A DNA stretch of 53,844 nt, taken from NCBI GenBank assembly GCA_030765365.1, contig JAVCCS010000076.1, positions 1 through 53,844 on the forward strand, read 5' to 3'. Source of the DNA: Candidatus Theseobacter exili. GTDB taxonomy: Bacteria; Auribacterota; JACPWU01; Theseobacterales; Theseobacteraceae. This document shows, in pieces, positions 1,857 through 53,844 of this stretch. The notes beneath the pieces were generated by a model that was given only the letters and a program-made list of their open reading frames with translations, did no database searches and was not told where the DNA came from. Position numbers and translations under genes: made by a program. The first letter of the stretch is position 1. The number at the start of each line of letters is the position of its first letter.

Positions 1857-1903
1857 ATCAAATAAGCTTAAATATAATGATTTAAAATATTAGGAAAAGC
1901 TCT

Positions 1904-2881: not shown

Positions 2882-2888
2882 CATAATT

Positions 2889-4475: not shown

Positions 4476-4490
4476 TAAAAGCAAACAAAT

Positions 4491-6590: not shown

Positions 6591-6607
6591 CAAAAAGAAG
6601 AGTTGAA

Positions 6608-26394: not shown

Positions 26395-26529
26395 TCACGT
26401 CCTCGTCTTCCAGTCTCTTACGCAAAGTGCTTCTAAAACTATTCTTATTTTTTCTTCTGCACTGAATTTGCGTCTGGTTTTCCTGCGAATTTCTCTTACA
26501 ACAGATTCCGTGTTCCTTCTTTTTCCCAT
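26395..26529 (-). mobile_element. Truncated IS3-family transposase OrfA (N-terminal 44 codons only)
   Basis: Manual translation gives MGKRRNTESVVREIRRKTRRKFSAEEKIRIVLEALCVRDWKTRT*. The RKFSAEEKIRIVLE segment matches the HTH start of COG2963/IS3-IS911-type OrfA proteins. The ORF then degenerates and stops where repeat copy A begins. Confidence 0.6.
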
Positions 26530-26652
26530 TTTAAAACTCCTTTTACTTTTCAAAAGTACACCTTAATTATATTATAAAATCTGTCCGATTAATTCTGAAG
26601 TCAAACAAACTTGACTGTTTAATTAAATAAACTATAAAAAAAGGAGAGGTAA

Positions 26653-31981: not shown

Positions 31982-32040
31982 TTTTTTCTATCCTGACAAT
32001 TTGTTTAACATAAAAAATATCATATATTTATTTGGACAGG

Positions 32041-33492: not shown

Positions 33493-34601
33493 TATTTCTC
33501 CAATGTTAAAAAATCCGGAATATGATATGGATCTTCAATTATTCCTTCATCCAGCATTTTTTCGATTAAAATAATATCATTCAATGAAACCTTACCAACA
33601 TATAAAAGATTAATATTATTGCCATTCTGAACGAATTCCTTGATCTTTTTCCTTCCGCTAAGATAATGCACATCTTTTATTAATGCGCCAGGCCCGGAAG
33701 TATCAACCAGTCCTCTTTTTGTCCTTTCCACCAAACGATATGCTAACTGTTCAGGGAAATATTTATTCAGTTCCATATAAGTTTCATAGAAAGACAATTT
33801 CAATGATAACTCAACAGCCAGAGCACGCCCTGCATAAACCTTCTCCTGGGCACAATCTAAACAGGAACAAATATCCTCTGCATACACTGCCAAACCCTCT
33901 TCTGTTTCATTATACCCGGCAAAACCGGTCTGAAACATTTTAAATGGCTGCCTGCTTCCGTTTTCGCCTCTTAAAACATGCACCTGTATTTCATGAACCT
34001 TCAGCCTTTCAATTTCACTCGACATATAATTAAGATCCCGATTTACAATTACTTTTTTATGCCGTGGATCTATACGAACCTTTGAAGCTACATTTGATTC
34101 CAGAACAATCTTCCAGGGCAAAGATAAACGTTCCAATTCATTTTTTAAGGATTCAAACACTTCATGAGCTGAAACAGGTTCATTAAAATCTGCCATACTG
34201 GTATTTAAAAGTATCTTTCTGGCATCTTTGATGACCTCTTTATCACATACACCATGCAATTTCTCGGAAAAAACGCTGAAATTCCTGTCGTGCCTGAATT
34301 CCAGAAAATCAAGTTCAATTAAAAGCCTTTTCAACTGCTTGCTGTATAATTTTCCTAAAGCAGAATCATCAAAAGTAAATTCGGATAAAGACTTACGGAA
34401 AGAATCAAGTTCAGGACTAGTTTGATATATGTATTGTGGATTATATATTTTCCCGCTGCTGATATTATCTAAAAATAGTTTTCTCTCTTCAGGTCTGTTA
34501 ACTGGAAGTAAAACAGATGAAAAGTCTATTTTCCCCAGCATTTGCCTGACATAATTTTCAAAAATAATTATTTGTTCAAATACATTATTCATAAAATCCA
34601 T
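33492..34601 (-). CDS. DUF1704 / MATCAP-like metallo-carboxypeptidase family protein ('QEGLA motif' family)
   Basis: 369 aa. HEIQVH (HExxxH, nt 33978-33995) followed 26 residues later by ETEEGLAVYAE (the EEGLA part is at nt 33888-33902). This is the signature arrangement of the DUF1704 family. Confidence 0.75.
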   Translation of the reverse strand: MDFMNNVFEQIIIFENYVRQMLGKIDFSSVLLPVNRPEERKLFLDNISSGKIYNPQYIYQTSPELDSFRKSLSEFTFDDSALGKLYSKQLKRLLIELDFLEFRHDRNFSVFSEKLHGVCDKEVIKDARKILLNTSMADFNEPVSAHEVFESLKNELERLSLPWKIVLESNVASKVRIDPRHKKVIVNRDLNYMSSEIERLKVHEIQVHVLRGENGSRQPFKMFQTGFAGYNETEEGLAVYAEDICSCLDCAQEKVYAGRALAVELSLKLSFYETYMELNKYFPEQLAYRLVERTKRGLVDTSGPGALIKDVHYLSGRKKIKEFVQNGNNINLLYVGKVSLNDIILIEKMLDEGIIEDPYHIPDFLTLEK

Positions 34602-37707: not shown

Positions 37708-38178
37708 TTACCGGCTCTCAGTTCGGCGTATCACTGATACCAAAAAACCATATGCTTTCTCATAAATACCGGGGCAGGAGGTTTCCCTGGGACCTGCAAT
37801 ATTCAGGGTTTCAATACAGCATTTCTTCAGCCAATTGAATACATCATCACCTCTGTTTTCGAAGTCATTAATATTTACTACCAGGCAAGGTTTTTTTAGC
37901 CGTTTTGCAACCTTCAATGTAAATGCAGTGCCTCCGGTCAAAGGGTCCGTAGATAAAATGAGAGTACCATCGCTGTCACGGACATTCCATTCGGTACGCT
38001 GTGAATACCTCTTTTGAGGTGTTTCTTTTAGAATATAACACTCAGGCAATATGCCGTCCTCAGCTATTCTTCCATTAGGGCACCAGCCTCCTGTCCTAAC
38101 ACCTGCTGTCAATGCAACATCAAGTGCTGCACGATCAACACCTGTTTGCCCGCCGGATATGATTTTTTGAAATTCCAC
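37708..38178 (-). CDS. cpYpsA-type SLOG-fold protein ('putative molybdenum carrier' family)
   Basis: 156 aa. ISGGQTGVDRAALDVAL..G...GGWCPNGRIAEDG...RTEWNVRDSDGTLI..GGT matches the circularly permuted YpsA family pattern. Confidence 0.75.
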   Translation of the reverse strand: MEFQKIISGGQTGVDRAALDVALTAGVRTGGWCPNGRIAEDGILPECYILKETPQKRYSQRTEWNVRDSDGTLILSTDPLTGGTAFTLKVAKRLKKPCLVVNINDFENRGDDVFNWLKKCCIETLNIAGPRETSCPGIYEKAYGFLVSVIRRTESR

Positions 38179-38313
38179 GATTCCGCAACCATTTTTCTGT
38201 TCACTGGTAAAAAAACTTAAACTTGCAGTAAAAATAAGTTATATTAATTACTAATACTGTAGCACTCATATAATAATCGTAAATGATAATATCTTCAAAG
38301 GAAGGTAATGCTA

Positions 38314-40737
38314 ATGAAAACGGCATATCTATTAACTACTCTTTTTGTATCACTAATAATTACCTGCCCCATATTGGCAGAGACTGTTGACAAAGGATCG
38401 GGAGAAAGCAAAAACAAAGCAACTATTGCTATTGTTCAGGATGGACAATCACAACTTCTCAATGAGCAGAAAGCCAAAATCAAAAAGGAACTTAATGTTT
38501 TAGTTGACGATGATTTTGTCGTGATTTTTAAAGATATTCCTGACTTTAACGCCAACTGGAAATTAAACGAAATGGACAAGGTTCTGAATAATGCACTTAA
38601 CGATCCAGAAGTTGATTACATCATAACAATAGGTCCCCTGGTTACACATGCCGCTATTCATTATAAAGGAAAGTTGTCTAAACCTGTTATCGGCGGCGGC
38701 CTTTATGAAGATGTAGACGCGCTTGGCTTGCTTTACGATGATAAAGGACGCTCGTTGGTGCCAAACTTTACTTTCGTTGTTGTTCCCTTCCAGTTGACAA
38801 ATGACTTAAAAGTATTTAAATCATTAATACCTTTCAAAAAAGTCCATATTCTCGTTGATTCAGCATTTATTGAAGGTACTCCTGACACCGAAATGAATGA
38901 AGCTACAACCAGTATTGAAAAAAAATCCGGGGTCGAATTAGTTCTGGTACCAATGGATACAAAAGCCGATGATATCCTCGCACAACTGGATGATAAAATT
39001 GAAGCTGTTTATATCACTCCGCCTTTACGTATGAATACATCGGAATTCCAGAAACTTATAGCCGGAATCAATGTCAAAAAAATCCCGTCTTTTTCAATGA
39101 TGGGTATTGTAGATGTTGAAAAAGGTGTACTGGCCGGTCAGGCACCTATATTGGATAAGCGTCATGCCAGAAGGTCAGCGCTGAATATCCAGCAAATTTT
39201 GATGGGAACATCACCTAACGAACTTTCTGTTTTTATGCCAATCGATGAAAAGCTGACAATCAACGGGAAAACTGCTCACAAAATTGGTTTCAATCCTAAT
39301 TTTCAAACACTATTAAATGCTAATGTGCTTTATTGGGAAGATTTGCAATCGGGCAAGCTGCTAACAATGGAAAAATCAATACAAATTGCGTTAAAAAACA
39401 ATATAAACCTTGCAATAAAAAAATCTGCCCAGGAAAGTGCCCGACAGGACAAAAACATAGCTCTGAGCAGTATGTTTCCTCAATTAGATGGAAATACCAG
39501 GTATTACCAGGTTGATAAAGACAGGGCAGAAACATCCATGGGATTACAGCCTGAAAACCGGACTTCGGCAAGAATTTCAGTCAGCCAGATGGTTTTCAGC
39601 GATTCAATAATCAGTAATTTCCGCGCAACAGGTCAAACTTACCTTTCAAGTAAACTAGAAACAGAAACGCAGCGTCTGGATATTATTGAATCTGCCGCAA
39701 AATATTTCCTTTCATATTTGTCGTCTGAAGCTCTTCTAAAGATAGAAACCGACAACTTGAAACTTACTCAAAAGAATCTTGATCTAGCCAGACTACGAAA
39801 AAAAGTTGGAACTTCTGGACCAGAAGAGGTTTACAGGTGGGAAGCAGAAGAAGCCCAGCAAAAAAGCTCAGTTATTAATGCAGAGAAAAATGTTCAGCAA
39901 ACCAGAATAGCATTAAATCAGGTTCTTGGTATTGATCAAAACACTAAATGGACTCCTCAAAATATAATACTGGGTGAGAGAGAATACTATTTTCTGGATG
40001 ATCGTCTTAAAAATCTTGTCTACAACCAGGAACAATTGATTAACTTTGAAAATTTTTTAGTGAGTGCAGCTCTTGAAAATTCTCCTGAGATTCAGACTAT
40101 GAACCATGCAATAAAGGCACAGAAAGTACTGCTGGGTTTATCAAAACGCAGATTCATATTGCCGGACGTTTATGCCGGTTTCTCCTATGACCGAGAACTA
40201 AGTGAAAAGGTAATTGGGCCAACTCTTTCCGACCCGATATTTTCTACAGAGGAACCAGACCGCAACGAATGGATGGCTACACTATCAGCATCTCTCCCTC
40301 TTTTTGAAGGGGGCGGCCGTTTTTTTAAAGTTGCAAAAAACAAAGCTGATCTTGAAAAAACCATTGAAAAGAAAACTCAAGTTTCACAGCTTGTCGAGCA
40401 AAGAACACGCACGGCCGTTCTTTCAATAGGAAGTTCGTGGCCAAACATTCAGTTAAGCAGACAAGCCGCAGAAAGCGCCCATAAAAACCTGGATATTGTC
40501 CAGGACAAATATGCTCAGGGCACTGTCTCTATCCTGGATCTTCTGGATGCACAAAATCAATCTTTCAGCCAGGATCAGGCTGCTACAATTGCTGTATACA
40601 CATACATGGAAGATATCGTTGAACTTCAAAGATCTGCCTCCTGGTTTGAAATAGATAAAAATCCCGAAGAAAAAGAAATATTCTTAACTAATCTTGAGGC
40701 ATACTTTAATCAGCATACTGCCAAAAAGGGAGAATAA
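38314..40737 (+). CDS. TolC-family outer membrane factor with about 345-aa N-terminal periplasmic-binding-protein-like extension
   Basis: The C-terminal about 460 aa has the OEP double-repeat character (LTMEKSIQIALKNNINL.., LDLARLRKKVG, YAQGTVSILDLLDAQ). The N-terminal part after the signal peptide (ATIAIVQDG...VDYIITIGPL...KPVIGGG) resembles ABC_sub_bind-type domains; this is tentative. ATG 38314 is preferred because of the GGAAGG spacing. Confidence 0.75.
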   Translation: MKTAYLLTTLFVSLIITCPILAETVDKGSGESKNKATIAIVQDGQSQLLNEQKAKIKKELNVLVDDDFVVIFKDIPDFNANWKLNEMDKVLNNALNDPEVDYIITIGPLVTHAAIHYKGKLSKPVIGGGLYEDVDALGLLYDDKGRSLVPNFTFVVVPFQLTNDLKVFKSLIPFKKVHILVDSAFIEGTPDTEMNEATTSIEKKSGVELVLVPMDTKADDILAQLDDKIEAVYITPPLRMNTSEFQKLIAGINVKKIPSFSMMGIVDVEKGVLAGQAPILDKRHARRSALNIQQILMGTSPNELSVFMPIDEKLTINGKTAHKIGFNPNFQTLLNANVLYWEDLQSGKLLTMEKSIQIALKNNINLAIKKSAQESARQDKNIALSSMFPQLDGNTRYYQVDKDRAETSMGLQPENRTSARISVSQMVFSDSIISNFRATGQTYLSSKLETETQRLDIIESAAKYFLSYLSSEALLKIETDNLKLTQKNLDLARLRKKVGTSGPEEVYRWEAEEAQQKSSVINAEKNVQQTRIALNQVLGIDQNTKWTPQNIILGEREYYFLDDRLKNLVYNQEQLINFENFLVSAALENSPEIQTMNHAIKAQKVLLGLSKRRFILPDVYAGFSYDRELSEKVIGPTLSDPIFSTEEPDRNEWMATLSASLPLFEGGGRFFKVAKNKADLEKTIEKKTQVSQLVEQRTRTAVLSIGSSWPNIQLSRQAAESAHKNLDIVQDKYAQGTVSILDLLDAQNQSFSQDQAATIAVYTYMEDIVELQRSASWFEIDKNPEEKEIFLTNLEAYFNQHTAKKGE

Positions 40738-40738
40738 A

Positions 40739-41845
40739 ATGAGATTTCTGAAAAAAGTTTATTGCATCGGAATCAGTGTTTCCGTAGCTTTATGTCTGGT
40801 TTCCTGTTCCCGCAATGAAACACCTGAACAGAAAGTGATCAGGCCTGTTGTAACTATCCAGCTTCAAGAACCCACGTCCGGTCGAAAAATATCTTTCTCT
40901 GGTACAGCAAAAGCCGCGCTTGAGACAGTACTAAGTTTCAGGGTATCCGGTGAAATACGTGAATTACCGGCAAAACCCGGGAATAAGGTTCAAAAGGGTG
41001 ATGTGATTGCAAAACTTGATACCACAGATTATGAACTCCAGGCAAATCAGTCTAAAGCTCAGTTAAATCAAACAGAAGCTCAATTCAAGCAGGCAAAAGC
41101 TGAATACGAGCGTTCCAGATCTCTTTATGAAGCCGGAAATCTCAGCAAAAGCGATCTGGATGGAGCACAAGCATCTTTTGAATCAGCTAAAGCCCAAAAA
41201 GACGCCAACCAAAAGAGCCTTATGCTTTCCAGGCAGCAACTCAAATATTGCACTCTTAAAGCACCTGTTGACGGATACATTTCATCTGTCCCGGTAGAAG
41301 TTTATACAACTATTCAGGCTGGACAAACTATTGCAACAGTTGATTCGGGAAAAGAAATGAAAATAAAAACAGGTATACCGGAAGCAATCATAGGTCAAAT
41401 CACTAAAGGAAAGCCGGCTGTAGTAAGTTTTGAATCTGTTCCAGGAACATTTTTTGATGCAACCATATGTGAAGTCGGCATTACTTCTTCAGAAAGCGGA
41501 ACATATTCTGTCGAACTGCTTTTAAAAAAAATGGACAATCGCATCAAATCAGGCATGGTCGGTGAAGCTACATTTTTACTTGAAAGATCACAAATAAATT
41601 GCTTCGTAGTTCCGGCCGTAGCTATAGCTTCTGAAGCAAACGGAACAAGATTCGTATGGATATATCAACCGTCCAGCTCCACTGTTAAGAAACGCACAGT
41701 TGAAGTTGGTAGCCTTACAACAAAAGGCCTTGAGGTTATTAAGGGTATTTCTCCTGGAGATATCATTGTAATCAGGGGTGTCCACCGCCTGAACGAAAGT
41801 CAAAAAGTAAGACTCCAGGAAACCGGAAAAGGGGCAGCATCATGA
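40739..41845 (+). CDS. RND efflux periplasmic adaptor (MFP/HlyD family), lipoprotein
   Basis: Lipobox LVSC, coiled-coil hairpin (QANQSKAQLNQTEAQFKQAKAEYERS...), and barrel domains (APVDGYIS). Start moved to ATG 40739, directly after the tolC-like stop. Confidence 0.88.
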   Translation: MRFLKKVYCIGISVSVALCLVSCSRNETPEQKVIRPVVTIQLQEPTSGRKISFSGTAKAALETVLSFRVSGEIRELPAKPGNKVQKGDVIAKLDTTDYELQANQSKAQLNQTEAQFKQAKAEYERSRSLYEAGNLSKSDLDGAQASFESAKAQKDANQKSLMLSRQQLKYCTLKAPVDGYISSVPVEVYTTIQAGQTIATVDSGKEMKIKTGIPEAIIGQITKGKPAVVSFESVPGTFFDATICEVGITSSESGTYSVELLLKKMDNRIKSGMVGEATFLLERSQINCFVVPAVAIASEANGTRFVWIYQPSSSTVKKRTVEVGSLTTKGLEVIKGISPGDIIVIRGVHRLNESQKVRLQETGKGAAS

Positions 41846-44800
41846 ATCCCGGACTCTGGTGTATAAAAAACAACAGGACAACTGCTGTTTTGCTTCTACT
41901 TCTGGTTCTGTCCGGAATATTCACATTTAAAAATATTTCAAGGCTTGAAGACCCAGAATTTACTATCAGATGTGCTACAGTCATAACCTCATTCCCAGGA
42001 GCATCACCTCAACGTGTAGAAGAGCTGATAACAGATAAAATTGAAAAAAAACTGAGGGAAATGCCTGAAGTCGAAGACGTTCTGTCCCAATCAATGACAG
42101 GACTTTCAATTATTTTTGTTCAGGTTGCAGAAAAATACAAGAATATGGCTCCAATTTGGAATGATCTGCGAAATAAAGTTGATGACATAAAATCCGGATT
42201 ACCCGAAGGATCCTATCCCCCTGCCATAAATGAATCATTTGGAGATGTTTTCGGAATAGTTATATCAATAACCGGTGACGGATACACATATCGGGAAATG
42301 AAAGATGTAGCAGAAGACGTACGGGATAAATTTCTAAAGATTGACAGTGTTGCCAAAGTTGACTTTTACGGAACTCAGAAAGAACAGATCTTCGTTGATT
42401 TTTCAACAGCAAAACTCGCTGAATACGGGATCAGCCCATATCAGCTTTCACAAATGCTGCAAGCTCAAAACACTATCCAGTCCGGCGGAGAAGCCCTTCT
42501 TCAACCTGAACGAATAGTAATAGAAGCCACAGGCGAATTTAAATCCATTGATGAACTGAAAAGAGCTACTATCAGGATCCCGGGACAGTCAGGATTGCTT
42601 TATCTGGAAGACATTGCCACAGTCAAACGAAGTTTTGTTGACCCACCCACAACCATGACCCGATTTAATGGAAAACCCTCTATTACAATGGCAATAAGCA
42701 TGGCCAGTGGCGGGAATATAGTCAAACTGGGCAAACTTATTACAGATGAAATGGAAAAGATCGAGTCCGGACTTCCAGTTGGACTGGATTTCAACATGCT
42801 GGTATATCAACCCAAATACGTAGATAAATCCATAAATGAATTCATGGTAAATCTACTTGAAGCCTTTGCTCTGGTTATAATCGTTATGCTTCTTTTTGCA
42901 GGATTGAGAACAGGACTCATAACAGGTTTGCTTGTACCAATGGCTATGCTGATGTGCATAATTCTTATGCCTCTTTTCGGTGTTGTTCTTCAAAGGGTTT
43001 CCATCGCGTCACTTATCATTGCACTTGGAATGCTTGTTGATAACGGTGTTGTTGTAAGTGAAAGCATACTGGTACGTCTGGCTGAAGGAGAAGAGCGCCT
43101 GAAAGCCGTGGGAGACACTGTAAAAGAGCTTTGGCTTCCGTTATTAATAGCTTCACTAACAACGATTTGCGCATTTTTACCAATTGCCACCGCAAAATCA
43201 GCTATAGGCGAATACTGTATTTCGCTATTTATTGTTATATCGCTGACCCTTTTAAGCTCATGGGTTTTGTCCATTACAATGATGCCTCTTTTATGCTATT
43301 ACTTTTTAAAACCCCGAAGAATGGCCCAAAATTTCAAGGGCAGGTTTTATCGTTTTTACAGATCTTTCCTTATTTTTAATCTCAAACGAAGATCGATGTT
43401 TATTATCGCGGTTGTTGCTCTACTTCTATTATCACTCTGGGGATTTAGATTTATTCCAAATATCTTCTTCCCGCCCAACTCTAGAGATATGTTTATGGTA
43501 GATTTCTGGCAGCCATACAGTACTGACATACGTATAACACAACAAAGAGCCAAAAAACTTGAATCCTTTTTAATGAACCAAAAAGAAGTTGTTTCTGTAG
43601 GAACATTTACCGGATCAGGCGGACCTAGATGGTATCTGGGTCTTAATCCTGAACAGGACAATTCGAATTATGCATTTTTATTAATAAATACAAAAAACAA
43701 TTCAGCAGTGCCTGGCCTAATGCGGAAAACACGTACATTTCTAAGCAAAATTTTTCCTGACTGCCAGTATACGATTAAGGAACTTGAGAGCGGAACGCCT
43801 GTAGGTGCTCCGATTCAAATAAGGCTCTCGGGAAAAGATATTTCAACAATATATGAGCTTCGGAACAAAATATTTAACGCAATATCCGTTATCCCTGGAA
43901 TAAGTAATGTCAGGGATGATTGGGGAGAATGGACAAAAAAAATCGTTGTCAATGTAAATCAGGATCAGGCAAAACGTGCAGGAATAACCAGTCAGGACAT
44001 AGCTCTTTCGCTTCAAACCCAGATGACAGGTCTTAATGCGACAGAATTCAGGGAAGGGAAGGAAGCTATTCCCATAATAATTCGTTCCGGAGAAGCATAC
44101 AGGCAGGATCTTGGAAAACTTGGCAGCATGAACGTCTATTCATATTCCAACGGAGCGAATGTTCCTTTGCTGCATGTAGCAAAAGAAAATTTAACGTGGC
44201 AACCGAGTAATATCTTGCGAAGAAACCAAACAAGAACAATGGTTATAAAAACAAACATTATAGGCAGAACTGCCAGTGAAGTCTTGAATGAAGTTATCCC
44301 AAAAGTCAATGCATTAAAAGCTTCTCAAGACTGGATTGCCGGTTATGAAATTGAATACGGCGGTGAATTCGAAGAATCAGCTAAAGCACAAAAATCTATC
44401 ATTGACGGTTTGCCTCTGGCGCTTGGACTTATAATTATCCTTCTCATTTCCCAGTTCAATTCAATACGGCGGTCTATTATTATTGCTCTTACTATCCCTG
44501 GAATGATAATCGGTATAACACCTGGTCTTCTTATAACTAACGCCCCTTTTGGCTTTATGGCAATGCTTGGCATGATCAGCCTTATGGGCATAATAGTTAA
44601 TAATGCTATTATGATGATTGACCGTATAGAAATAGAAAGAGGACTTGGTCAAAGGATAGAAGATTCAATTATAATTGCAGCTCAGCACAGGTTCAGACCT
44701 ATCTTAATGACTACAATAACTACTATTCTTGGCCTGATACCGCTTTCTTTACAGGGAGGGGAAATGTGGCGTCCAATGGCAAACGTAATAATCTTTGGGC

Positions 44801-44922
44801 TGGCATTTTCAACAATTTTAACTCTGGTTTTATGTCCTGTACTATACTCTTTATTCTTCGGATCAAATTTCAAAGAGTACAAATGGACACCGAAAATTTT
44901 GGTTAAAGATAAAAAAGCATAG
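41842..44922 (+). CDS. RND-family efflux permease (AcrB/HAE1-like)
   Basis: 1026 aa, 12-TM two-lobe organisation, GMLVDNGVVVSE and GIIVNNAIMMID motifs. 4-nt overlap with the MFP gene. Confidence 0.92.
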   Translation: MNPGLWCIKNNRTTAVLLLLLVLSGIFTFKNISRLEDPEFTIRCATVITSFPGASPQRVEELITDKIEKKLREMPEVEDVLSQSMTGLSIIFVQVAEKYKNMAPIWNDLRNKVDDIKSGLPEGSYPPAINESFGDVFGIVISITGDGYTYREMKDVAEDVRDKFLKIDSVAKVDFYGTQKEQIFVDFSTAKLAEYGISPYQLSQMLQAQNTIQSGGEALLQPERIVIEATGEFKSIDELKRATIRIPGQSGLLYLEDIATVKRSFVDPPTTMTRFNGKPSITMAISMASGGNIVKLGKLITDEMEKIESGLPVGLDFNMLVYQPKYVDKSINEFMVNLLEAFALVIIVMLLFAGLRTGLITGLLVPMAMLMCIILMPLFGVVLQRVSIASLIIALGMLVDNGVVVSESILVRLAEGEERLKAVGDTVKELWLPLLIASLTTICAFLPIATAKSAIGEYCISLFIVISLTLLSSWVLSITMMPLLCYYFLKPRRMAQNFKGRFYRFYRSFLIFNLKRRSMFIIAVVALLLLSLWGFRFIPNIFFPPNSRDMFMVDFWQPYSTDIRITQQRAKKLESFLMNQKEVVSVGTFTGSGGPRWYLGLNPEQDNSNYAFLLINTKNNSAVPGLMRKTRTFLSKIFPDCQYTIKELESGTPVGAPIQIRLSGKDISTIYELRNKIFNAISVIPGISNVRDDWGEWTKKIVVNVNQDQAKRAGITSQDIALSLQTQMTGLNATEFREGKEAIPIIIRSGEAYRQDLGKLGSMNVYSYSNGANVPLLHVAKENLTWQPSNILRRNQTRTMVIKTNIIGRTASEVLNEVIPKVNALKASQDWIAGYEIEYGGEFEESAKAQKSIIDGLPLALGLIIILLISQFNSIRRSIIIALTIPGMIIGITPGLLITNAPFGFMAMLGMISLMGIIVNNAIMMIDRIEIERGLGQRIEDSIIIAAQHRFRPILMTTITTILGLIPLSLQGGEMWRPMANVIIFGLAFSTILTLVLCPVLYSLFFGSNFKEYKWTPKILVKDKKA

Positions 44923-46370: not shown

Positions 46371-49300
46371 TTACGCCATTGCATCAATAGCTTTTTGTGC
46401 CCGTATATAAGAATCAATATCTTCTACTTTCTTATTATAAACAGGCGGTAAGAGAAACTTTTCCGGATCATTCAATATCTCTTCAATAGATAATCCGGCT
46501 AACGCTTCTTCTGAAATCTGGTCTGTTTCATAAAACTCACGTAATATTTGTCTAAGCAATTTAGAGGCTCTATCATCCAGAACAGCATCGTCTTTTCCTA
46601 CGCTTGCTATATATCCAGCCAGATCCATTGAAATATCAATATATCCAACCTGGCTTGCTGATAGCGGCAAAATGCTTGCTTTCTGTACTGAAGAAGGAGA
46701 TTTTCCTTCTTCTGAAAGAACAATTGCAATCTGATTGTTCTCAGGAAGCATTTTAAACCTTTTCCAATTGTTATTAAGTTGTTCCTGCGCAGTAGAAGAA
46801 AGGCCATGTATCTTCTTTCCGTCAAGAATAGCCAAACGGCTTATATTTTTCATAATAAACTGCGTTCTTTTCATTTCATCCATCCATTCAAGTAAACGAC
46901 CATCTACAACGACCGGCATTTCTTTATCAGTGCTATCTCTGAAATAATCAATACCTTCAAGAACACGTGACGCAGCTTCTTTTGAACTGCTAACAGTGGT
47001 TTTGCCATGTGACAAGTGACAATAAGTGCCTGTTGGCCCTTCCATATGTTCGGCTGAATAACCATCAGGTATTTCCCCTGTATTAAGAAGCGCCTCAACA
47101 CAGTTTCTTACAATAACTGTCAGCTCTTCAAACGAACTATTCCTTATGTTATCTATTAATACCCATTCAGCGTCTCCTGCCCGTTTACCAACCATCATAC
47201 TGATAACAGACATCGCATCTTCCAATATAGCTGAATCAGGCTCTGCGTTTTCACTATACATGCTGACATCACCACTAAGCAAATTGATTACAATAACTTC
47301 TGTCTCTGGCTTAAGAGCAAATAACTCCATAAGCTCCTTTGTAAGAAGGTCTGCCGCTTCCTTTAGTCTTTGTTCTTCCTGTTTCTTAATAACAGCTCCT
47401 GCAACTCCAATTAATCTTTTGCCAGAGAGTTGTGCCTCGGTTTTCATCCATTCCGCCAGTTCTTCAGCTACAGCATCTAAAACTGCTCCCTTCAATTTAC
47501 CAATCTCCACTCCACCTATCTGGACATACCATATTCCTCTTGAATCCAGCACGGCAGATGCCCTTTCAACAGCTTCGGCTACTTCAGCATGTCCAAACTG
47601 TTTCAGTATTTTTCTGGCTTCGGCTTTTGCTATAACCTTTTTTAATCTGCTGATCTCTTCGGCGCTAATACCAGCCTCTTTAACAACAACAGCAGAACTT
47701 CTGAAATCTTTAAGTCCTTTTTCCATCCTATAACGTTTGCGTTCCATTTCAATCTTAAGCAGAGTCTTCAAACAGTCCAGATTCTTCCCTTCTGAATCTA
47801 AAAGTTCTTCAAGCAATTCTTCTCCAATAAATACTGTTGATCCAAAAGATTCACCATAATGAGCATAGCTGCTTCCTTTCACAGAATCATCAGCTACAGC
47901 AACACAATTAGCTAAAACTGCTAAACGTGTTTCAGCAAACATCTTTCTGATAGACTCATCTTTCATTAAAAAACTATTAAAACGATCAGCCAGATCTTCA
48001 GAGTTAATCATTTCACCAAGTGTTTCAACAATGATATCTCCATCAAGAGATGTCCTTGTTCGCGGCAAATCAGATTCCATAACCGGCCTGATTATATCTC
48101 CTATATCTGTATTAGTTAGCTTTTCACGATCTGATGGTCCTGAAACCTGTCCATCAGCAGTCAAAGCAAAATTCCCACTTGGTTTTGTTTGACTAAATAT
48201 CGATTTGGCTTCATCAATAGCATCCAAAACCATTTTATTATCAACTCCAACTTCATCCAGTCTGGACTCCAATTCATCAATTATTCCACTAATACTCATT
48301 TTAATAGTAGCCTGATGCAGGGCAGTCATTTCTTCACTAGGCATATCGACACCTGGAGAAATTTCAGGTCCTTCCGGTACAGGGTTAATTGTAAGGTCTT
48401 CTATCTGCGCAAGGAATCGTTTCATATCATCCAGTAGATCCTGGATAGGAACAGGTTCCATCTTCACTTCAGAACCCACACCTTCCTCCGCATCAAATTC
48501 AGTATCCCCAAGATCTGCAACTGCATCTAATAACGCAGAATGTTCCTCAGGTGTAAAAAGGCCGCGTCCGGCAGATTCGATTTCAGTTACTGGTTGATCC
48601 TTTTTAGGCCTAACTCTATTGACATGTTCATAAATAAGCGCTTTCAGATTATCCGTATCATTGATATTTACATCAAATTGAGGTTCTGTTCCTATAATAT
48701 TCACTACAAACATACGTAATGCATTATTTAATAGCTCATCATCCTCAATTCCTGAAATTCGAAGCACTTTAATAAGATTATCAACCCACGCCTGTACAGA
48801 CTTTTCAAAAAATTCTTCGTGCTCATCGATTAGTTTATTAATAACATAAAAATCACCAAAATCCGTTCCGCGCCCAAGTATATCAACATTGATTATTGAA
48901 CCATGAGCAGCTTGCAATATACCTGTCTGCACTGCACTGAGAAATGTTTTTCCATAATTTGCAGAAAGCATAATAATATATTCTTCAGGAGTCATACCCA
49001 TCTCTGCAATAACTGAATTAAATAATTCTATATTTGGTTTTCCGTTTACATGAAAGAAACTTGCTAAACGCCTGTAATCGCTCACTGGAACACGCAAGCT
49101 CGCGTAATAAGAATCATCAAGATATAGTACACTTAACGACCAACGGCTCAAATCACCGCCAATTGTTAGTAAACTCTCTTCCCTTTGAAGTGAAAGACTT
49201 TCACCTGTGCTCATTCCAACCGGAGTGCCTCTTCCAAATTGATGTTCCCAGTCAAGGAACAAACCAGGTTTTCCTACAAACCCATCAAATACAGTGGAAG

Positions 49301-52300
49301 GAAACATATTATTGATATTATGTTCTTTATATGCTGGCGTACCAAGATTTTTAAATTCAATCCCATAAACATGATGTCGCTGAAGCGTTTCAGACTGAAG
49401 ATCATCACTGCTTCCAACGATTCTAATACCATTCCCATTTTTAATAGTTGCAATAGAATATGGAATAGGAAGCAGCATCGAACGCCCTGATATTCCTAAA
49501 AGAGGCATTTCAAAAGGACTTTCTCCATCTTCATCTACAACACGACGAAGACCGTACCTTTCATATACCTCCAAGTCTGTCAGAGGCCTGACATCTCGCG
49601 TTGTTAGCGCGTCTTCTTTTTTTACATAAAATGGACCTGCTGTAAAAACAAGAGAACCATCTTCGCCATCAATCAATTCTTTATATTCATCTGGCAATTC
49701 TACACCAGCAGGCATATTCCATGAAGCATTCGCCTTTACGTAAACATGCGCATTAACGGGCACAAATGCTGTTCCTTGCTGTAAATACTCAATCTCACCA
49801 GTATTTCTGTCAACCTGAATACTTGCAGCTTTATTTGACAAAGCGGTACTGACTTCTTTTGAAACCCGGTCTTTCAACTTTAATAATACTTTACTAGCTA
49901 TAACAGGAGAATAAACTGACTCAATATTTCTTACAATCCTTGTACAAACACCGCCGCTGTCAATTCTTGAAATGTTTTCTGGATTAGTAATTATTACTTC
50001 GTCTGCAGCACCCGATTGGACTGCTTCAACGGCTGCCTGAACCTTAGGAAGCATACTGCCGGCAGCAAAATGCCCTGCTTCAATATAACCTTTCATTTTT
50101 TCAGGAGTTGCAACAAGAACCTTCTGTTCCTTGACTGAATCTCCAAAATTTAGATAAACACATGGAACCGCTGTTGAAATAATAAGTCTTCTAGTCTTCA
50201 CTTTTCCGGGAGGGCCACGTTCGGTAAATTCTTTTGCTAGTTGTACGGTTGCAAGATCTTTATCGATAACAGCAGGCAGGGGTTCAAGTCTCCCAAACTG
50301 TTTATAAGTTTCATAATCCACAGGGATTCCTCCCCCACCAACGCAAATAACAATCTTTCCATCCTCTACATGTTGTTTAATTCTCTCCATTTCAACAATT
50401 TCAAGAGGGATAGGAGAAGCAACCCTGGGTCTTGTATCAGGACCTTCTGCTGGTTCTATTCCTATAGGTTTTGTCGGATTCTGAAAACCTGAATCATCAC
50501 CGTCTACTGCAACGTGCGTGGGAACAAATACGATCTGCTCACGATCTACACCAAGCTCTACCAAGGCTTCAATAATATCCTCGGCAATCCAGTCCTGAGT
50601 ATCACTCACAACGTCAGCAAGCTGAGCAAGAATTTCATCCGGAGTTTGCCCTGGTCTTTTCCTCCTCTCAAGCAACACTCCTACTTCAGGTCCATTCCCG
50701 TGAGTAATTACTCCGCCGTCCCTAATTGCAGGCAGAACCTTCCTGAGTGTTACCTTTATCTTTCTTTTCTGCTCTCCTCGAATACGGTCAAAATCCTCCG
50801 GATTTTTAGGATCGGCTTCACCAATATCTTCTCCGGAAAGAAGCGAATTTCCTCCTATCGAAATCCAGTTAACAGGCTTAACCGTTCCATTATTTGTTTT
50901 CTTCTGCACCTGATCTTCAAGTTCTTTAAGAAAAACAAATATATCCTTTGGATCAATAGCCGTTACGTTAGGCGATCCTCCTTTAGGAATAAGCCGCCCT
51001 ACCAGTTCCGGCGTAAGATCCTTTATATTAAGAGGTTCTGTAAGTTCTTCTGTATCAAGTAACTCAAACAATGCCTGTTCAAGAAAATCGCGTCCCTTTT
51101 CCTCTCCCAGATATTCAATAAAACTTTCATAAAACGCTCTCTTGAATTCTCTATCCAGCAACTTACTTTGTGCAGCCTCCATATCCCAATCAACATCCCA
51201 CGATCTTGGCATGTGCCCCCAAAGATGAAATATCATATTGCCAGGTGTCTTTAATTCAATTCGATCATCAACATCAAGAATTCTTGGTCCCCTTGTAGTT
51301 CTTTTTGCGTTTCTCCACTTTGCGTCAAGAGCTATTCGGCCATCACCGGTTGCCCATAAATGAATCCATGATTTAACAAATTCCTTTATTAATTCAGGTT
51401 CAATTTTATCTCTGAATATATCCTCATAGGTAGGACCTTCAATGAATTCATCAAACATGAAATTTCTGCCTCTTGCATAAAATTCCGGATAAATATCAGG
51501 ATCACGACTATTTATTCTCTCCTGATGATCGCTATACCCGCCAACATAATCCATATCTGTCTTTCCGGTTTTAGCAGCAATTTTAAGCTCTCCCTGTAGT
51601 GGTTCTTTCCCGGCAATCATGTTAACTCGTACTGAAAAAACCCTCTTTTGAGCGCCTTGAACTGTTTCTCTTGCAATAGAAACAGACTCAATGTCATCAA
51701 TATCTATATCCTTGTTCTTCAATATTTCCTGAACCGCCGTGGCGTCTGCATAAAATCTACTTCTATCTTCCCGTGAAACATCATTATCAAACAGCATCAA
51801 ATCACGTACAGCATTAGCCCGAACACCTGCGTCTGATTTCATTAATTCTCTATGTCTTTGAAGAGCTATATGCCCGGCAAGCCAGAGTAGCTGATGATAA
51901 AACCTTGACTCTGTATCCTTGTATTCTGTCCTCCAGTCCTCTAGACCATCCTGGACCTTAACAACCTTTTCAATTGCCTCAACAACTGCAGACTGCTCCT
52001 GTATCTCGTGGTTCATTTCGGAAGCAGCCTTTGCTGGACGGGTAATAGCTGAAAAATCAAGATATATCTGGGAACGCGACACACCATAATGAGCTCCTGG
52101 AAAATAATGCGGCGGACTACGTCCTGTTTTTTTCCTATAAAAATCTTTGAAATTTTTGTCCAGGTTCTGCACCAGTAACAAAACAGATCCATCGGACGGT
52201 TTCTGAAAAAGTTCAACCTCATTGATTGCATCTATTTGTACCTGAGTAAGAGCAGGCAGACTGCTTTCAATAACGCTACCGTCATCGTCCAGTAATTCAG

Positions 52301-53844
52301 TAGGAACATACTCTCCGTTCTCGTATCTCAGCGCCTGGAATCTGCCTTCATCTAAAATCAATCTTTGTAGAACGGAAGTATATAATGCATTTGCCACATC
52401 AACCATACCCCTTCTTTGTTCATTTAAAGAAAGTTTCTGTATTTCCTGCAACAATAATTCATCCATTCCACCTGGCTGAAGCTTGTCAATAACCGCATTT
52501 GCACCAATCTTACGCAATTTTCCTTCATCGCTGGCTGCACCTGCTGCCAAAACAACAATGTCTGGCTGGGGAATTGCAGAATTGCGAATCTCTGCAATCA
52601 AACGCCCGCCCTGCTTTTCTACAGCAGCCATTCCCTGTGTATCATTACCCATTTTCAAGTCAGTAACCACTAAATCAATCGGAGTTCCTCTATCAGCATT
52701 GTCCTGCAAAATTTTCATTGCTTCTGCATGATCTCTGGCCTGCAGTAACTGTTGTCCCGGAAACCTTTCCCTTAAAACACTATTCAAGTGCAATAAAATT
52801 TTCAGTTTATCATCAACATGCAAAATCCTCTGATATCCGGTTTCTGTTTCGGTTGCGGCTTCCCGTTCGGCACCATAAGTTTCTGTTAAAGTGGCACCTG
52901 GTGTTTCCGCTGTAATTCTCCTCTTCTTTTTTATAGCCAAAGCACAGGGCTGACCGGCAGATGTTTCAAATTCATGTATATCTTCAACCAGTCCAGAAAA
53001 AGGTTCACTTTCAAATATTTCACGAGCTTTTCCAATAGGAGAGGCCTCAAAAGTATTTATATTCAACTGTCCATCATAAAAAAAGACAAGAACACCGTCC
53101 TCAGCAACCAGATTTTCCAGTATATGTCTTAGAAAATACGTATAAGGCATTATTGCGTCTGCATCAGACGGGTGAAATCCCCTTCTAAGTGCAAAAAGCT
53201 CTATAAAAGGCCACATGTTATACATTATGACCCCTTTTGCCTTACCCTTTTTTCTGCTGATAAAATCAAGCTCATCATGCATCTTCTCGAGAAAAGCGTC
53301 GTCAAAGAAATCCCCATTGAAAAATAAAATCTTCGGAAGCTCCCTTGCATCTGTATAAACATTTTCAGGTTCCAATTCCAGCCTGTCAACATTGACAATG
53401 CGATAAGCATCGATATTAACCGGAAAAGATCCGGATCCCAGGTTAAGGTAATAATCATCGGGATTTCTTGTTTCCATTCCCAACTGATCCAAAAGTGAAG
53501 TCATGTTAATTGTAACCTGCGCTCTATATTCGGCTGGCTCCTCTTCCTGATTTATTGACAAGTTAATTGGATTAAACTGGTGCACCCTTGACCAATCAAT
53601 TGTTCTTGATGAAGTTTGCATTCTATTGACAAACGCATTCCAGTCTTCGCGATCTTCCTGCATCCGCATCCTGTTTTCTTCCTCAAGGCATTTTACATCA
53701 TCACCAAAATAGTCAGATGAAGCATTGTCAAGTTTTCCAACAAAAGCTTTTCCCTCATCCGGAGCAGCAGTAAATGCGTCAATTATCCATCCGTCATCTG
53801 TCTGCACCCACACATGATATGCCGGAGCTCTGATATAATAAAAC
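46371..53844 (-). CDS. Giant multidomain protein (>2,480 aa; 5' end outside window): MTase-like, receiver, kinase-like, carbamate-kinase and SelO-like modules plus an unknown C-terminal region
   Basis: Single uninterrupted frame. The ORF-track 'M' at 53813 is a GTG, and the frame stays open to the window edge (..FYYIRAPAYH-VWVQTDDGW..), so the true start is probably upstream. Domain evidence is listed separately. Confidence 0.85.
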   Translation of the reverse strand, partial: FYYIRAPAYHVWVQTDDGWIIDAFTAAPDEGKAFVGKLDNASSDYFGDDVKCLEEENRMRMQEDREDWNAFVNRMQTSSRTIDWSRVHQFNPINLSINQEEEPAEYRAQVTINMTSLLDQLGMETRNPDDYYLNLGSGSFPVNIDAYRIVNVDRLELEPENVYTDARELPKILFFNGDFFDDAFLEKMHDELDFISRKKGKAKGVIMYNMWPFIELFALRRGFHPSDADAIMPYTYFLRHILENLVAEDGVLVFFYDGQLNINTFEASPIGKAREIFESEPFSGLVEDIHEFETSAGQPCALAIKKKRRITAETPGATLTETYGAEREAATETETGYQRILHVDDKLKILLHLNSVLRERFPGQQLLQARDHAEAMKILQDNADRGTPIDLVVTDLKMGNDTQGMAAVEKQGGRLIAEIRNSAIPQPDIVVLAAGAASDEGKLRKIGANAVIDKLQPGGMDELLLQEIQKLSLNEQRRGMVDVANALYTSVLQRLILDEGRFQALRYENGEYVPTELLDDDGSVIESSLPALTQVQIDAINEVELFQKPSDGSVLLLVQNLDKNFKDFYRKKTGRSPPHYFPGAHYGVSRSQIYLDFSAITRPAKAASEMNHEIQEQSAVVEAIEKVVKVQDGLEDWRTEYKDTESRFYHQLLWLAGHIALQRHRELMKSDAGVRANAVRDLMLFDNDVSREDRSRFYADATAVQEILKNKDIDIDDIESVSIARETVQGAQKRVFSVRVNMIAGKEPLQGELKIAAKTGKTDMDYVGGYSDHQERINSRDPDIYPEFYARGRNFMFDEFIEGPTYEDIFRDKIEPELIKEFVKSWIHLWATGDGRIALDAKWRNAKRTTRGPRILDVDDRIELKTPGNMIFHLWGHMPRSWDVDWDMEAAQSKLLDREFKRAFYESFIEYLGEEKGRDFLEQALFELLDTEELTEPLNIKDLTPELVGRLIPKGGSPNVTAIDPKDIFVFLKELEDQVQKKTNNGTVKPVNWISIGGNSLLSGEDIGEADPKNPEDFDRIRGEQKRKIKVTLRKVLPAIRDGGVITHGNGPEVGVLLERRKRPGQTPDEILAQLADVVSDTQDWIAEDIIEALVELGVDREQIVFVPTHVAVDGDDSGFQNPTKPIGIEPAEGPDTRPRVASPIPLEIVEMERIKQHVEDGKIVICVGGGGIPVDYETYKQFGRLEPLPAVIDKDLATVQLAKEFTERGPPGKVKTRRLIISTAVPCVYLNFGDSVKEQKVLVATPEKMKGYIEAGHFAAGSMLPKVQAAVEAVQSGAADEVIITNPENISRIDSGGVCTRIVRNIESVYSPVIASKVLLKLKDRVSKEVSTALSNKAASIQVDRNTGEIEYLQQGTAFVPVNAHVYVKANASWNMPAGVELPDEYKELIDGEDGSLVFTAGPFYVKKEDALTTRDVRPLTDLEVYERYGLRRVVDEDGESPFEMPLLGISGRSMLLPIPYSIATIKNGNGIRIVGSSDDLQSETLQRHHVYGIEFKNLGTPAYKEHNINNMFPSTVFDGFVGKPGLFLDWEHQFGRGTPVGMSTGESLSLQREESLLTIGGDLSRWSLSVLYLDDSYYASLRVPVSDYRRLASFFHVNGKPNIELFNSVIAEMGMTPEEYIIMLSANYGKTFLSAVQTGILQAAHGSIINVDILGRGTDFGDFYVINKLIDEHEEFFEKSVQAWVDNLIKVLRISGIEDDELLNNALRMFVVNIIGTEPQFDVNINDTDNLKALIYEHVNRVRPKKDQPVTEIESAGRGLFTPEEHSALLDAVADLGDTEFDAEEGVGSEVKMEPVPIQDLLDDMKRFLAQIEDLTINPVPEGPEISPGVDMPSEEMTALHQATIKMSISGIIDELESRLDEVGVDNKMVLDAIDEAKSIFSQTKPSGNFALTADGQVSGPSDREKLTNTDIGDIIRPVMESDLPRTRTSLDGDIIVETLGEMINSEDLADRFNSFLMKDESIRKMFAETRLAVLANCVAVADDSVKGSSYAHYGESFGSTVFIGEELLEELLDSEGKNLDCLKTLLKIEMERKRYRMEKGLKDFRSSAVVVKEAGISAEEISRLKKVIAKAEARKILKQFGHAEVAEAVERASAVLDSRGIWYVQIGGVEIGKLKGAVLDAVAEELAEWMKTEAQLSGKRLIGVAGAVIKKQEEQRLKEAADLLTKELMELFALKPETEVIVINLLSGDVSMYSENAEPDSAILEDAMSVISMMVGKRAGDAEWVLIDNIRNSSFEELTVIVRNCVEALLNTGEIPDGYSAEHMEGPTGTYCHLSHGKTTVSSSKEAASRVLEGIDYFRDSTDKEMPVVVDGRLLEWMDEMKRTQFIMKNISRLAILDGKKIHGLSSTAQEQLNNNWKRFKMLPENNQIAIVLSEEGKSPSSVQKASILPLSASQVGYIDISMDLAGYIASVGKDDAVLDDRASKLLRQILREFYETDQISEEALAGLSIEEILNDPEKFLLPPVYNKKVEDIDSYIRAQKAIDAMA
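48654..49376 (-). other. SelO/YdiU-like (protein-kinase-fold) module inside the giant protein (aa about 1480-1720)
   Basis: Three collinear blocks resemble SelO: IEFKNLGTPAYKE (compare LKGxGxTPYSR), SLRVPVSDYRRLASFFH (compare RVxxSxxRxGxFEH), and AAHGSIINVDILGRGTDFGDF (compare HGVMNTDNxSILGxTIDYGPF). The match was made by eye only. Confidence 0.4.
49926..50870 (-). other. Carbamate-kinase-type amino-acid-kinase module inside the giant protein (aa about 982-1296)
   Basis: Collinear with all carbamate kinase signature blocks that I recall: ISIGGNSLL, VITHGNGPEVG, FQNPTKPIG, VASPIPLEIVE, ICVGGGGIPV, AVIDKDLA, GHFAAGSMLPKVQAA and VIITNPENI. Confidence 0.8.
52476..52829 (-). other. Receiver (REC) domain inside the giant protein (aa about 329-446)
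   Basis: RILHVDDK.. (acidic pair), IDLVVTDLKM (phospho-acceptor Asp), IVVLAAG, and AVIDKLQ (conserved Lys). Confidence 0.75.

Follow-up and report, generated by a model that had tools for sequence, protein, structure and literature searches.

Giant proteins of the Omnitrophota, as presented by West-Roberts et al. (2023, bioRxiv 10.1101/2023.11.21.568195), carry methyltransferases, metabolic enzymes and PPDK-type kinases as highly divergent domains, and CheY-like receivers are common to them and to the giants of actinobacteria. The same study defines the Archaeovorins by their Omnitrophota origin and by a gene of more than 90 kb or a protein of at least 30,000 residues, and gives them numerous transmembrane helices, SecA_DEAD domains, HEAT repeats, glycosyl transferases and hydrolases, and NUDIX domains. 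A catalogue of 916 proteins of at least 10 kaa (thousand amino acids; Nielsen & Lui 2026, bioRxiv 10.64898/2026.06.07.730766) recognises 'multi-enzyme metabolic clusters' as one class, finds receivers in 105 of the 779 long proteins with Pfam matches, and assigns a signal peptide to 48% of long proteins, together with transmembrane helices in 39% and by itself in 9%; it also reads 46% of the Omnitrophota long proteins as membrane-anchored with their bulk in the cytoplasm, and states that such long genes are often truncated by contig ends. Here we describe a minus-strand gene that fills the last 7.47 kb of a 53,844 bp stretch of DNA from Candidatus Theseobacter exili (Auribacterota; contig JAVCCS010000076.1, the whole of which was analysed and is referred to as the window), and whose product is a mosaic multi-enzyme protein with no fewer than 2,490 residues.

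Translation of the minus strand from 46374 to 53843 gave 2,490 codons with zero stops, in a frame still open at the edge of the window. A first-pass annotation, made from the letters alone, had placed a single uninterrupted open reading frame (ORF) of more than 2,480 residues at 46371-53844; the ORF and its extent were borne out, except that position 53844 lies one base out of frame and the coding end is 53843. The frame is a genuine gene, because 2,490 codons remain open in DNA of about 39% G+C, codon periodicity is uniform, and the two C-terminal modules described below (A and C) give confident structural models. G+C at codon positions 1, 2 and 3 was 0.55, 0.36 and 0.29, a pattern equal in each of seven segments and like that of neighbouring genes, and codon usage compared with that of the window's other genes gave cosines of 0.78–0.95 for segments of the frame versus 0.86–0.97 for those genes themselves. 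The window as a whole has the 35–42% G+C of an ordinary bacterial chromosome. The protein is acidic (pI 4.8), and no internal repeats and no hydrophobic or transmembrane segment were found within the visible 2,490 residues. Its Cys content of 0.36% is close to the median of its relatives (0.41%), while most other proteins of the window have approximately 1–2.5% and the window's TolC-like protein has 0.12%. The frame comprises the following segments, with residues numbered from the first visible codon:

46371..53844, minus strand: whole open frame, 2,490 sense codons (46374-53843) and a stop codon (46371-46373), open at the window and contig edge
52839..53843, minus strand: residues 1-335, orphan N-terminal segment ending in a Lys/Thr/Glu-rich linker
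52482..52826, minus strand: residues 340-454, CheY-like receiver with D344/D345, phospho-acceptor D395 and K454
51639..52463, minus strand: residues 461-735, matching no family and without relatives
50889..51638, minus strand: residues 736-985, candidate protein-kinase-like segment, from motif spacing alone
49923..50876, minus strand: residues 990-1307, carbamate-kinase-like module with an amino-acid-kinase fold, from NCBIfam, Pfam and PDB alignments
48609..49922, minus strand: residues 1308-1745, module A, SelO-like kinase-fold family, from alignment, AlphaFold2 (AF2) and Foldseek
48192..48608, minus strand: residues 1746-1884, poorly conserved acidic linker (pI 4.05)
46374..48191, minus strand: residues 1885-2490, module C, conserved C-terminal module of about 600 residues with about 30 representatives

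The true N-terminus probably lies upstream of the window, as the first-pass annotation had also concluded, since no Shine-Dalgarno-like sequence was seen by eye in the 30 nt preceding the first in-frame GTG (53813). A start at that GTG is the alternative, and the protein-database entry for this product (P0001; labels of the form P00xx denote protein representatives in the set of relatives, and L0xx genomic loci of relatives) begins there and has 2,480 residues. The first visible residues were unlike the signal peptides of complete relatives, and when metagenomes were scanned, once with residues 1-335 and once with residues 461-985, neither an overlapping contig nor relatives emerged by which the N-terminus could be extended.

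A stop-free frame of 7.47 kb in A+T-rich DNA is beyond chance, its codon-position G+C and codon usage are uniform over the segments and like those of the neighbours, catalytic motifs are intact in the carbamate kinase, the receiver and module A, and the relatives described below show that long mosaic frames are normal in these lineages. These observations make it very improbable that a mis-assembly or sequencing error has fused ordinary genes, or that the frame is a decaying pseudogene, even though its combination of carbamate kinase, module A and module C is absent from all other proteins searched. PHROGs and PADLOC scans for a phage protein or a known defence protein gave nothing relevant.

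An exhaustive HMMER search of 1.84 billion representatives with residues 1300-2490 returned 53 proteins, which split into two independent modules, A and C. Among these representatives only the window's protein carries both, and it is likewise the only carrier of a carbamate kinase, so that the full architecture is confined to this one protein. A word-index search with the whole protein returned itself and P0002 alone, a protein of 2,017 residues that is 48% identical across residues 1308-1740 only; over 40 strong relatives (E down to 1e-188) escaped this search, as did the protein itself for sub-segment queries, so its negatives are weak. The first-pass annotation had been unable to match the protein to a described family, and indeed no curated family spans the whole of it, but it shares one or other of two modules with about 50 representatives and its general kind is already known.

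Module A was found in P0002-P0017, P0020, P0022 and P0029, about 20 representative clusters, with E=1e-79 to 1e-239 for P0002-P0017 in the exhaustive profile search. Seventeen relatives could be aligned at 30–49% identity. Invariant in this alignment are E1496 and K1498 (EFK), R1591 (DYRRL), D1654 (HGSIINVD), and D1661 and D1664 (TDFGDF), while at least 90% of the sequences keep R1592 and, in the predicted helix C, E1555. An AF2 model built from the 18-sequence alignment reached a predicted local distance difference test (pLDDT) score of 89.7 and a predicted template modelling (pTM) score of 0.88, with K1498 at the end of a strand and the invariant and nearly invariant residues in the secondary-structure elements where a kinase would be expected to have them. 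In a Foldseek comparison of this model with the PDB, ranks 1–9 were all YdiU/SelO (entries 9jym, 9jyn, 6lna, 6iii, 6k20, 9l29 and 6eac; E=4.5e-6 to 5.8e-4, probability 0.99–1.00), and ordinary protein kinases, of which the library has thousands, ranked behind them at E>7e-3. YdiU/SelO (among others 6eac, 6k20, 6iii, 6lna and 9jym) is thus the best and sole significant structural match of module A, and a likeness to SelO motifs can be followed by eye in LGxGGRS, EFKxxGTPxY and HGSxxNxD...G..TDFG. The first-pass annotation had called a SelO-like segment from motifs, a call that proved right in kind, by fold only; the roughly 150 residues that it listed as unknown, C-terminal to the carbamate kinase, belong to the N-terminal portion of this same module.

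Several results count against equating module A with SelO. The global TM-score was low (0.29–0.33) and sequence identity 12–15%; Pfam UPF0061, the SelO family, gave no match at E<=1; SelO was absent from PDB profile searches with 2 and with 18 module A sequences; and an hhalign comparison of module A with a hand-entered YdiU sequence was negative. The residue correspondence with SelO and its flipped-ATP chemistry are therefore assumptions built on a likeness at the level of the modelled fold. Judged by that model, module A is an undescribed family with a SelO-type kinase fold and not a member of the SelO family, because no profile method links the sequences and the fold alone does. The two also differ in setting: module A is found within large signal-peptide-led proteins, whereas SelO is a free enzyme of about 480 residues in the cytoplasm or mitochondrion, the bacterial form (SelO/YdiU) serving the stress response in the cytoplasm. 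Since its Lys and Asp residues are invariant and its helix-C Glu nearly so, module A is probably an active enzyme, the best candidate being a nucleoside monophosphate (NMP)-transferase like SelO/YdiU, with plain kinase chemistry as the alternative; that it is specifically an active SelO-type transferase appears somewhat probable.

C-terminal to module A, about 760 residues in which the first-pass annotation saw no recognisable motif resolved into the poorly conserved acidic linker and module C. The latter has two sub-parts, C1 at about 1885-2140 (SYAHYG, IEMxRxxYR) and C2 at about 2180-2490, which ends FPP...DIxSYxRAxxxxxxMA-COOH and is the last part of the polypeptide in every carrier. Each of the 17 full tails that were aligned closes with ...FPP-x8-D(I/V)ES(Y/F)xRAxxxxxxMA. 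An AF2 model built from 25 sequences (pLDDT 80.6, pTM 0.71) was of mixed alpha/beta structure with several subdomains, and neither the PDB nor BFVD, a viral structure library, held a significant fold match. Module C is an undescribed family with an invariant terminus, and we assign it no fold. A zincin-type peptidase was considered and rejected: the best hits, all faint, were to anthrax lethal factor (E=0.013, probability 0.21) and to ERAP1/M1 and M34 peptidases, and the family lacks HExxH.

Directly upstream of module A, residues 990-1307 form a complete carbamate-kinase module, as the first-pass annotation had recognised. The NCBIfam arcC model TIGR00746 matched with E=2.4e-47 and 161.5 bits, under its equivalog cut-off of 358; PRK12352 scored 162.8 bits and did not reach its cut-off of 266, while the Pfam AA_kinase superfamily model was passed (36.5 bits versus 24.9) over approximately residues 1023-1305. 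PDB alignments ran end to end with the solved carbamate kinases 1b7b and 1e19, both at 5e-30, and from residue 996 with 8crv. HGNGPEVG, NPTKPIG, AVIDKD and GSMLPK are kept in the alignments to 1b7b and 1e19, and the GGN motif (ISIGGN at 994) was read directly from the sequence, with an insertion after it seen by eye; we take the functional residues to correspond to Lys128 in NPTKPIG and Lys271 in GSMLPK of the Enterococcus faecalis enzyme. Every signature motif of ArcC (1b7b, 1e19, TIGR00746) is thus present in a full-length alignment. The protruding subdomain that covers the carbamate site is, however, 15 and 18 residues shorter than in 1b7b and 1e19, respectively, with the gap just after NPTKPIG, and because of this shortening and a score far below the equivalog cut-off the substrate may differ. 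ArcC also differs in being a free homodimer encoded in the arginine deiminase operon, whereas here the module lies inside a giant protein; no arc genes were found among the scanned ORFs of the window.

Residues 340-454 are a CheY-type receiver, judged on sequence similarity that is weak in score and on intact catalytic residues. The match to Pfam PF00072 had E=2.3e-5 and 24.9 bits, below the gathering cut-off of 30.2, and the top three matches of a PDB search were receiver domains at E=0.015–0.24 (two named response regulators and one 120-residue 'Histidine kinase' chain). In a hand alignment to CheY the DD/D/K set is intact, and Ala stands at the position equivalent to Thr87. The domain had been called in the first-pass annotation, as had the fusion of a receiver to distinct phosphoryl- or nucleotidyl-transfer modules, of which at least two, the carbamate kinase and the SelO-like kinase fold, are present. 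No histidine-kinase domain was found by Pfam in the available 2,490 residues.

The rest of the N-terminal half is orphan sequence, and in the entire protein Pfam and NCBIfam matched nothing but the receiver and the amino-acid-kinase module. Residues 1-1300 have no detectable relatives beyond the generic receiver and carbamate-kinase families: BLAST and phmmer searches with N-terminal segments against all relatives and their loci gave no match, nor did word-index searches with residues 1-1020 and 455-1020, a weak negative. Two further domain calls of the first-pass annotation fared less well than the three upheld above. A segment resembling an S-adenosylmethionine (SAM)-dependent methyltransferase, at about 130-255, has YYLNLGSGS at residue 131 and VNVD at 150 in plausible spacing, but it found no support in Pfam, PDB, profile or BLAST searches and no significant match to the methyltransferase domains of the relatives; a weak BLAST pairing (E=0.61) places LNLGSGS on motif I of the DOT1-like domain of P0002. 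A protein-kinase-like segment, at about 750-860, likewise had no Pfam, PDB or hhalign match, and hhalign against the module A profile gave nothing, so that only motif spacing fits: K758, a hinge FDEFIEG at 797-803, D840-x-K-x-x-N845 and ILD857VDD lie at intervals K758-E799-D840-N845-D857 of 41/41/5/12, versus 49/45/5/13 in protein kinase A. Shuffling the protein reproduced the core motif in 0.9% of cases and never, in 5,000 shuffles, the full constellation; these patterns had, however, been drawn up post hoc, which makes this a lead and not a test. The approximately 525 orphan residues after the receiver may include a small kinase-like domain.

Among the relatives, both families combine a conserved end or core with changing enzymatic content. 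P0002 has a signal-peptide-like N-terminus, cytidylate kinase, module A and a DOT1-like methyltransferase, and cytidylate kinase lies upstream of module A in five relatives altogether (P0002, P0005, P0006, P0009 and the L005 protein). When one genome per species was scanned, module A turned up in four metagenome-assembled genomes (MAGs), namely Candidatus Makaraimicrobium thalassicum (Omnitrophota), two labelled 'Candidatus Omnitrophota bacterium' and one labelled Planctomycetia, and the named members of the module A clusters are Omnitrophota, including Candidatus Aadella gelida, annotated as 'hypothetical protein' or '(d)CMP kinase'. The named carriers of module C are four paralogues in Candidatus Theseobacter exili itself (P0019, P0021, P0024 and P0026) and one 'Chlamydiota bacterium' protein; that Auribacterota MAG thus has at least four paralogues, and at least two more lie in another MAG, GCA_964640155.1 (L009; L010 21174-30977).

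In both families most complete members open with a Sec-type signal peptide, behind which comes a conserved leader of one of two types, 'LQVQSIFKPI...' in the module A family and 'LIRDLHxxEEAQ...EGAxG' in the module C family. The latter, more fully '...L(I/V)LIRD(L/I)H(C/A)xxEAQxxIA...(F/L)EGAxGxV...L(Y/F)xxFPD' after the signal peptide, was found in the N-termini of P0018, P0021, P0023, P0024, P0028, P0041, P0045, P0049 and P0051, and had no Pfam match in the three carriers scanned in full. Between leader and tail lies variable cargo that includes cytidylate kinase, GNAT, several methyltransferases, EPSP synthase, Dus, LOG/SLOG, HATPase_c, GT9, AAA_5 with VWA, and AceK kinase. Two module C proteins have atypical kinase folds, P0051 (L009 10001-21589) with AceK kinase/regulatory domains and P0023 (L007 10001-29449) with a faint APH match, and kinase-like enzymes seem to be a recurrent cargo in this family.

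Complete carriers have 477–5,544 residues in the module A family and 914–6,482 in the module C family. These sizes bear on whether the visible part is only the end of a much longer protein (more than 10,000–30,000 residues) of the Archaeovorin or very-long type, with transmembrane helices and a SecA-like domain further upstream, a reading that would be compatible with either an exported or a cytoplasmic protein. The frame is open at the contig edge, as contig ends often leave such genes according to the catalogue cited above, and longer frames do occur within the two families or next to their members: in an Omnitrophota MAG (JAQUOV010000008.1, a contig of 118,544 nt; L006 1-21137) a module A frame is open over the whole 21,137-nt locus, for more than 7,045 residues, with DprA/SLOG, GNAT, DnaJ, HATPase_c and a PRK-like P-loop domain as further cargo, and the gene directly after that of the module C protein P0028 encodes at least 7,589 residues. 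Given the modest size of the complete carriers, and 2,490 residues with no transmembrane helix, SecA_DEAD, HEAT repeat, glycosyltransferase or dockerin, we nevertheless consider so large a protein quite improbable.

Compared with the described systems, the protein resembles the Omnitrophota giants in joining unrelated enzymes (kinases, methyltransferases, GNAT, receivers and metabolic enzymes) in one polypeptide, in the divergence of its domains and in its large share of dark sequence; signal peptides are common in both, the lineages are Omnitrophota and their allies, and module A itself occurs in the Omnitrophota frame of more than 7,045 residues. It differs in scale, as the described sets comprise proteins of at least 10 kaa or genes of more than 90 kb, whereas here at least 2.49 kaa are visible and complete relatives have 0.5–6.5 kaa. 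From the Archaeovorins it differs further in that Pfam and hydropathy analysis of the visible part gave no transmembrane helix, SecA_DEAD, HEAT repeat, glycosyltransferase or glycosyl hydrolase, NUDIX or dockerin. We therefore file it within the broader known kind, the mosaic multi-enzyme giants of the Planctomycetes-Verrucomicrobia-Chlamydiae (PVC) group, and not as an Archaeovorin; that it is a real gene and a member of this kind we hold with high confidence. The first-pass annotation had called the domain chain unprecedented, which holds for its exact order and not for its kind, already described for Omnitrophota in 10.1101/2023.11.21.568195 and 10.64898/2026.06.07.730766. Searched by term, neither paper names a SelO-like module, and 10.64898/2026.06.07.730766 names neither carbamate kinase nor cytidylate kinase; in the sections consulted, no conserved C-terminal module is described. 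The new content is thus the SelO-like kinase-fold family, the C-terminal module with its invariant terminus, and a carbamate kinase embedded in such a protein.

As to function, we consider an array of exported enzymes more likely than a signalling scaffold in the cytoplasm. For the whole package, that is, a mosaic gene whose product contains a SelO-like transferase and works as an exported array, we estimate a probability of roughly 0.45; its last part, an exported or envelope-tethered array acting outside the cytoplasm of the producer, is put forward tentatively from sequence features of the family. The protein would be a beads-on-a-string array of autonomous enzymes, since its linkers are acidic or of low complexity and each module folds confidently alone. 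Signal peptides in the relatives, a Cys depletion like that of the TolC-like protein, and paralogues that swap cargo between conserved ends all favour an array that would be exported, or tethered at the envelope, and would have another cell or the envelope as its target. The SelO-like module would transfer AMP or UMP onto protein hydroxyl groups, and the small-molecule kinase upstream of it, carbamate kinase here and cytidylate kinase in the five relatives, would supply or recycle nucleotide locally, as the recurrence of such a kinase upstream of module A suggests. Carbamate kinase can form ATP from carbamoyl phosphate and ADP, and carbamoyl phosphate is also a small-molecule phosphodonor for receivers, so that a coupling between carbamate kinase and receiver is conceivable. 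The receiver would gate the array via phosphorylation of Asp395. Module C would serve as the targeting, export or assembly domain of the family.

Other observations weigh against export. The protein's own N-terminus is missing, so that no signal peptide is seen, and the 2,490 visible residues contain no hydrophobic segment; a receiver and ATP-dependent enzymes would be more at home in the cytoplasm than outside the cell; secretion genes adjoin neither the giant gene nor the genes of four inspected relatives, whose neighbours are housekeeping genes; and the nearby RND/TolC genes are of efflux type and on the opposite strand. The protein can also be read as a regulatory or metabolic scaffold in the cytoplasm, soluble or tethered to the inner face of the membrane, which corresponds to the self-contained signalling or modification machine proposed in the first-pass annotation and in which a histidine kinase would signal through the receiver to kinase and NMP-transferase modules that modify the cell's own proteins or metabolites. 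Such a scaffold would fit the intact DD/D/K residues of the receiver, the ATP requirement of every recognisable module, the lack of transmembrane segments in the 2,490 visible residues, the cytoplasmic location of bacterial SelO/YdiU, and the HATPase_c domain within the same polypeptide in the L006 relative; it would also fit the membrane-anchored 46% of Omnitrophota long proteins with cytoplasmic bulk (10.64898/2026.06.07.730766). It sits poorly with the Sec-type signal peptides of most complete relatives in both families, for which the positive-inside rule puts the bulk outside, and with a Cys depletion that recalls the window's outer-membrane protein. Nor is there a histidine-kinase domain in the 2,490 residues, and a paralogous family that swaps cargo is typical of conflict or effector proteins and not of housekeeping regulators. 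We regard the cytoplasmic scaffold as rather unlikely.

The exported array has a parallel in logic only with MARTX and other modular multi-effector toxins, which also have conserved ends, variable internal enzyme cargo and several paralogues. Unlike MARTX, the giant protein has no RTX repeats or cysteine protease domain by Pfam and no adjacent type I secretion ABC transporter; more generally, polymorphic-toxin hallmarks (RTX repeats, an autoprocessing protease, adjacent secretion or immunity genes) were not found by Pfam or among the nearest neighbours. A bolder proposal, which we rate as speculative and unlikely, is that modules A and C mark unrecognised modular effectors of PVC episymbionts or predators (Omnitrophota, Auribacterota and some Chlamydiota), in which leader and C-terminal tail (...ESYxRAxxxxxxMA-COOH) would form an export device and the swappable middle would act in the partner cell, with a SelO-like NMP-transferase 'warhead' fed by the fused kinase.

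No feature of the Omnitrophota and related ultra-small PVC bacteria is more conspicuous or less understood than their giant mosaic proteins, whose sequence for the most part lacks annotation. Module A, confidently modelled and with an intact catalytic set, could be expressed alone for AMPylation and UMPylation testing, and module C, with a strictly conserved terminus and several paralogues per genome, lends itself to tests of a role in targeting or export. Where relatives have cytidylate kinase this protein has a complete carbamate kinase, which suggests that such arrays bring their own supply of nucleotide. Current ideas are not overturned by these findings; they extend a known phenomenon to smaller proteins and to the Auribacterota.

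The window also contains polyphosphate genes, trp and his genes, a resistance-nodulation-division (RND)/TolC efflux system and an inverse autotransporter; searches of it for tRNAs, Rfam families and relevant tandem repeats gave none. The nearest neighbours of the giant gene are a PP2C phosphatase gene, convergent on the opposite strand, and the RND efflux genes, and a scan found no terminator around the convergent gene ends. The efflux genes (38308-44922, plus strand) begin with an 809-residue TolC/OEP protein fused to an N-terminal domain like an ABC substrate-binding protein, with HlyD-type and AcrB-type genes next. An 812-residue OEP that is 30% identical to it is encoded at L001 21505-22695, approximately 9 kb downstream of the P0002 gene.

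The inverse autotransporter (34780-37578, minus strand) has 932 residues, with an IAT beta-domain and a right-handed beta-helix, and adjoins a circularly permuted YpsA/SLOG protein (37708-38178, minus strand); SLOG/LOG domains are also among the cargo of the giant relatives. Three genes at 30404-34601 (minus strand) encode a 525-residue ORF with no Pfam match, an ATP-grasp protein and a MATCAP-like protein of the tyrosine carboxypeptidase family, and may be a peptide-modification set. A compact polyphosphate island (354-8086, plus strand) comprises a two-domain PPK2, a ROK-family kinase, Ppx/GppA with an HD domain, PPK1, and a CHAD protein with Ppx domain III. Downstream of a 747-residue ORF with no Pfam match (10304-12547, plus strand) lies a 2-thiouracil desulfurase domain fused to a DNA-alkylation-repair domain (12555-13784, plus strand). 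Finally, within a 1.8-kb stretch that otherwise holds short ORFs only, a 52-residue ORF (26395-26553, minus strand; '...RRKFSAEEKIRIVLEAL') resembles a remnant of an IS3-type transposase OrfA.

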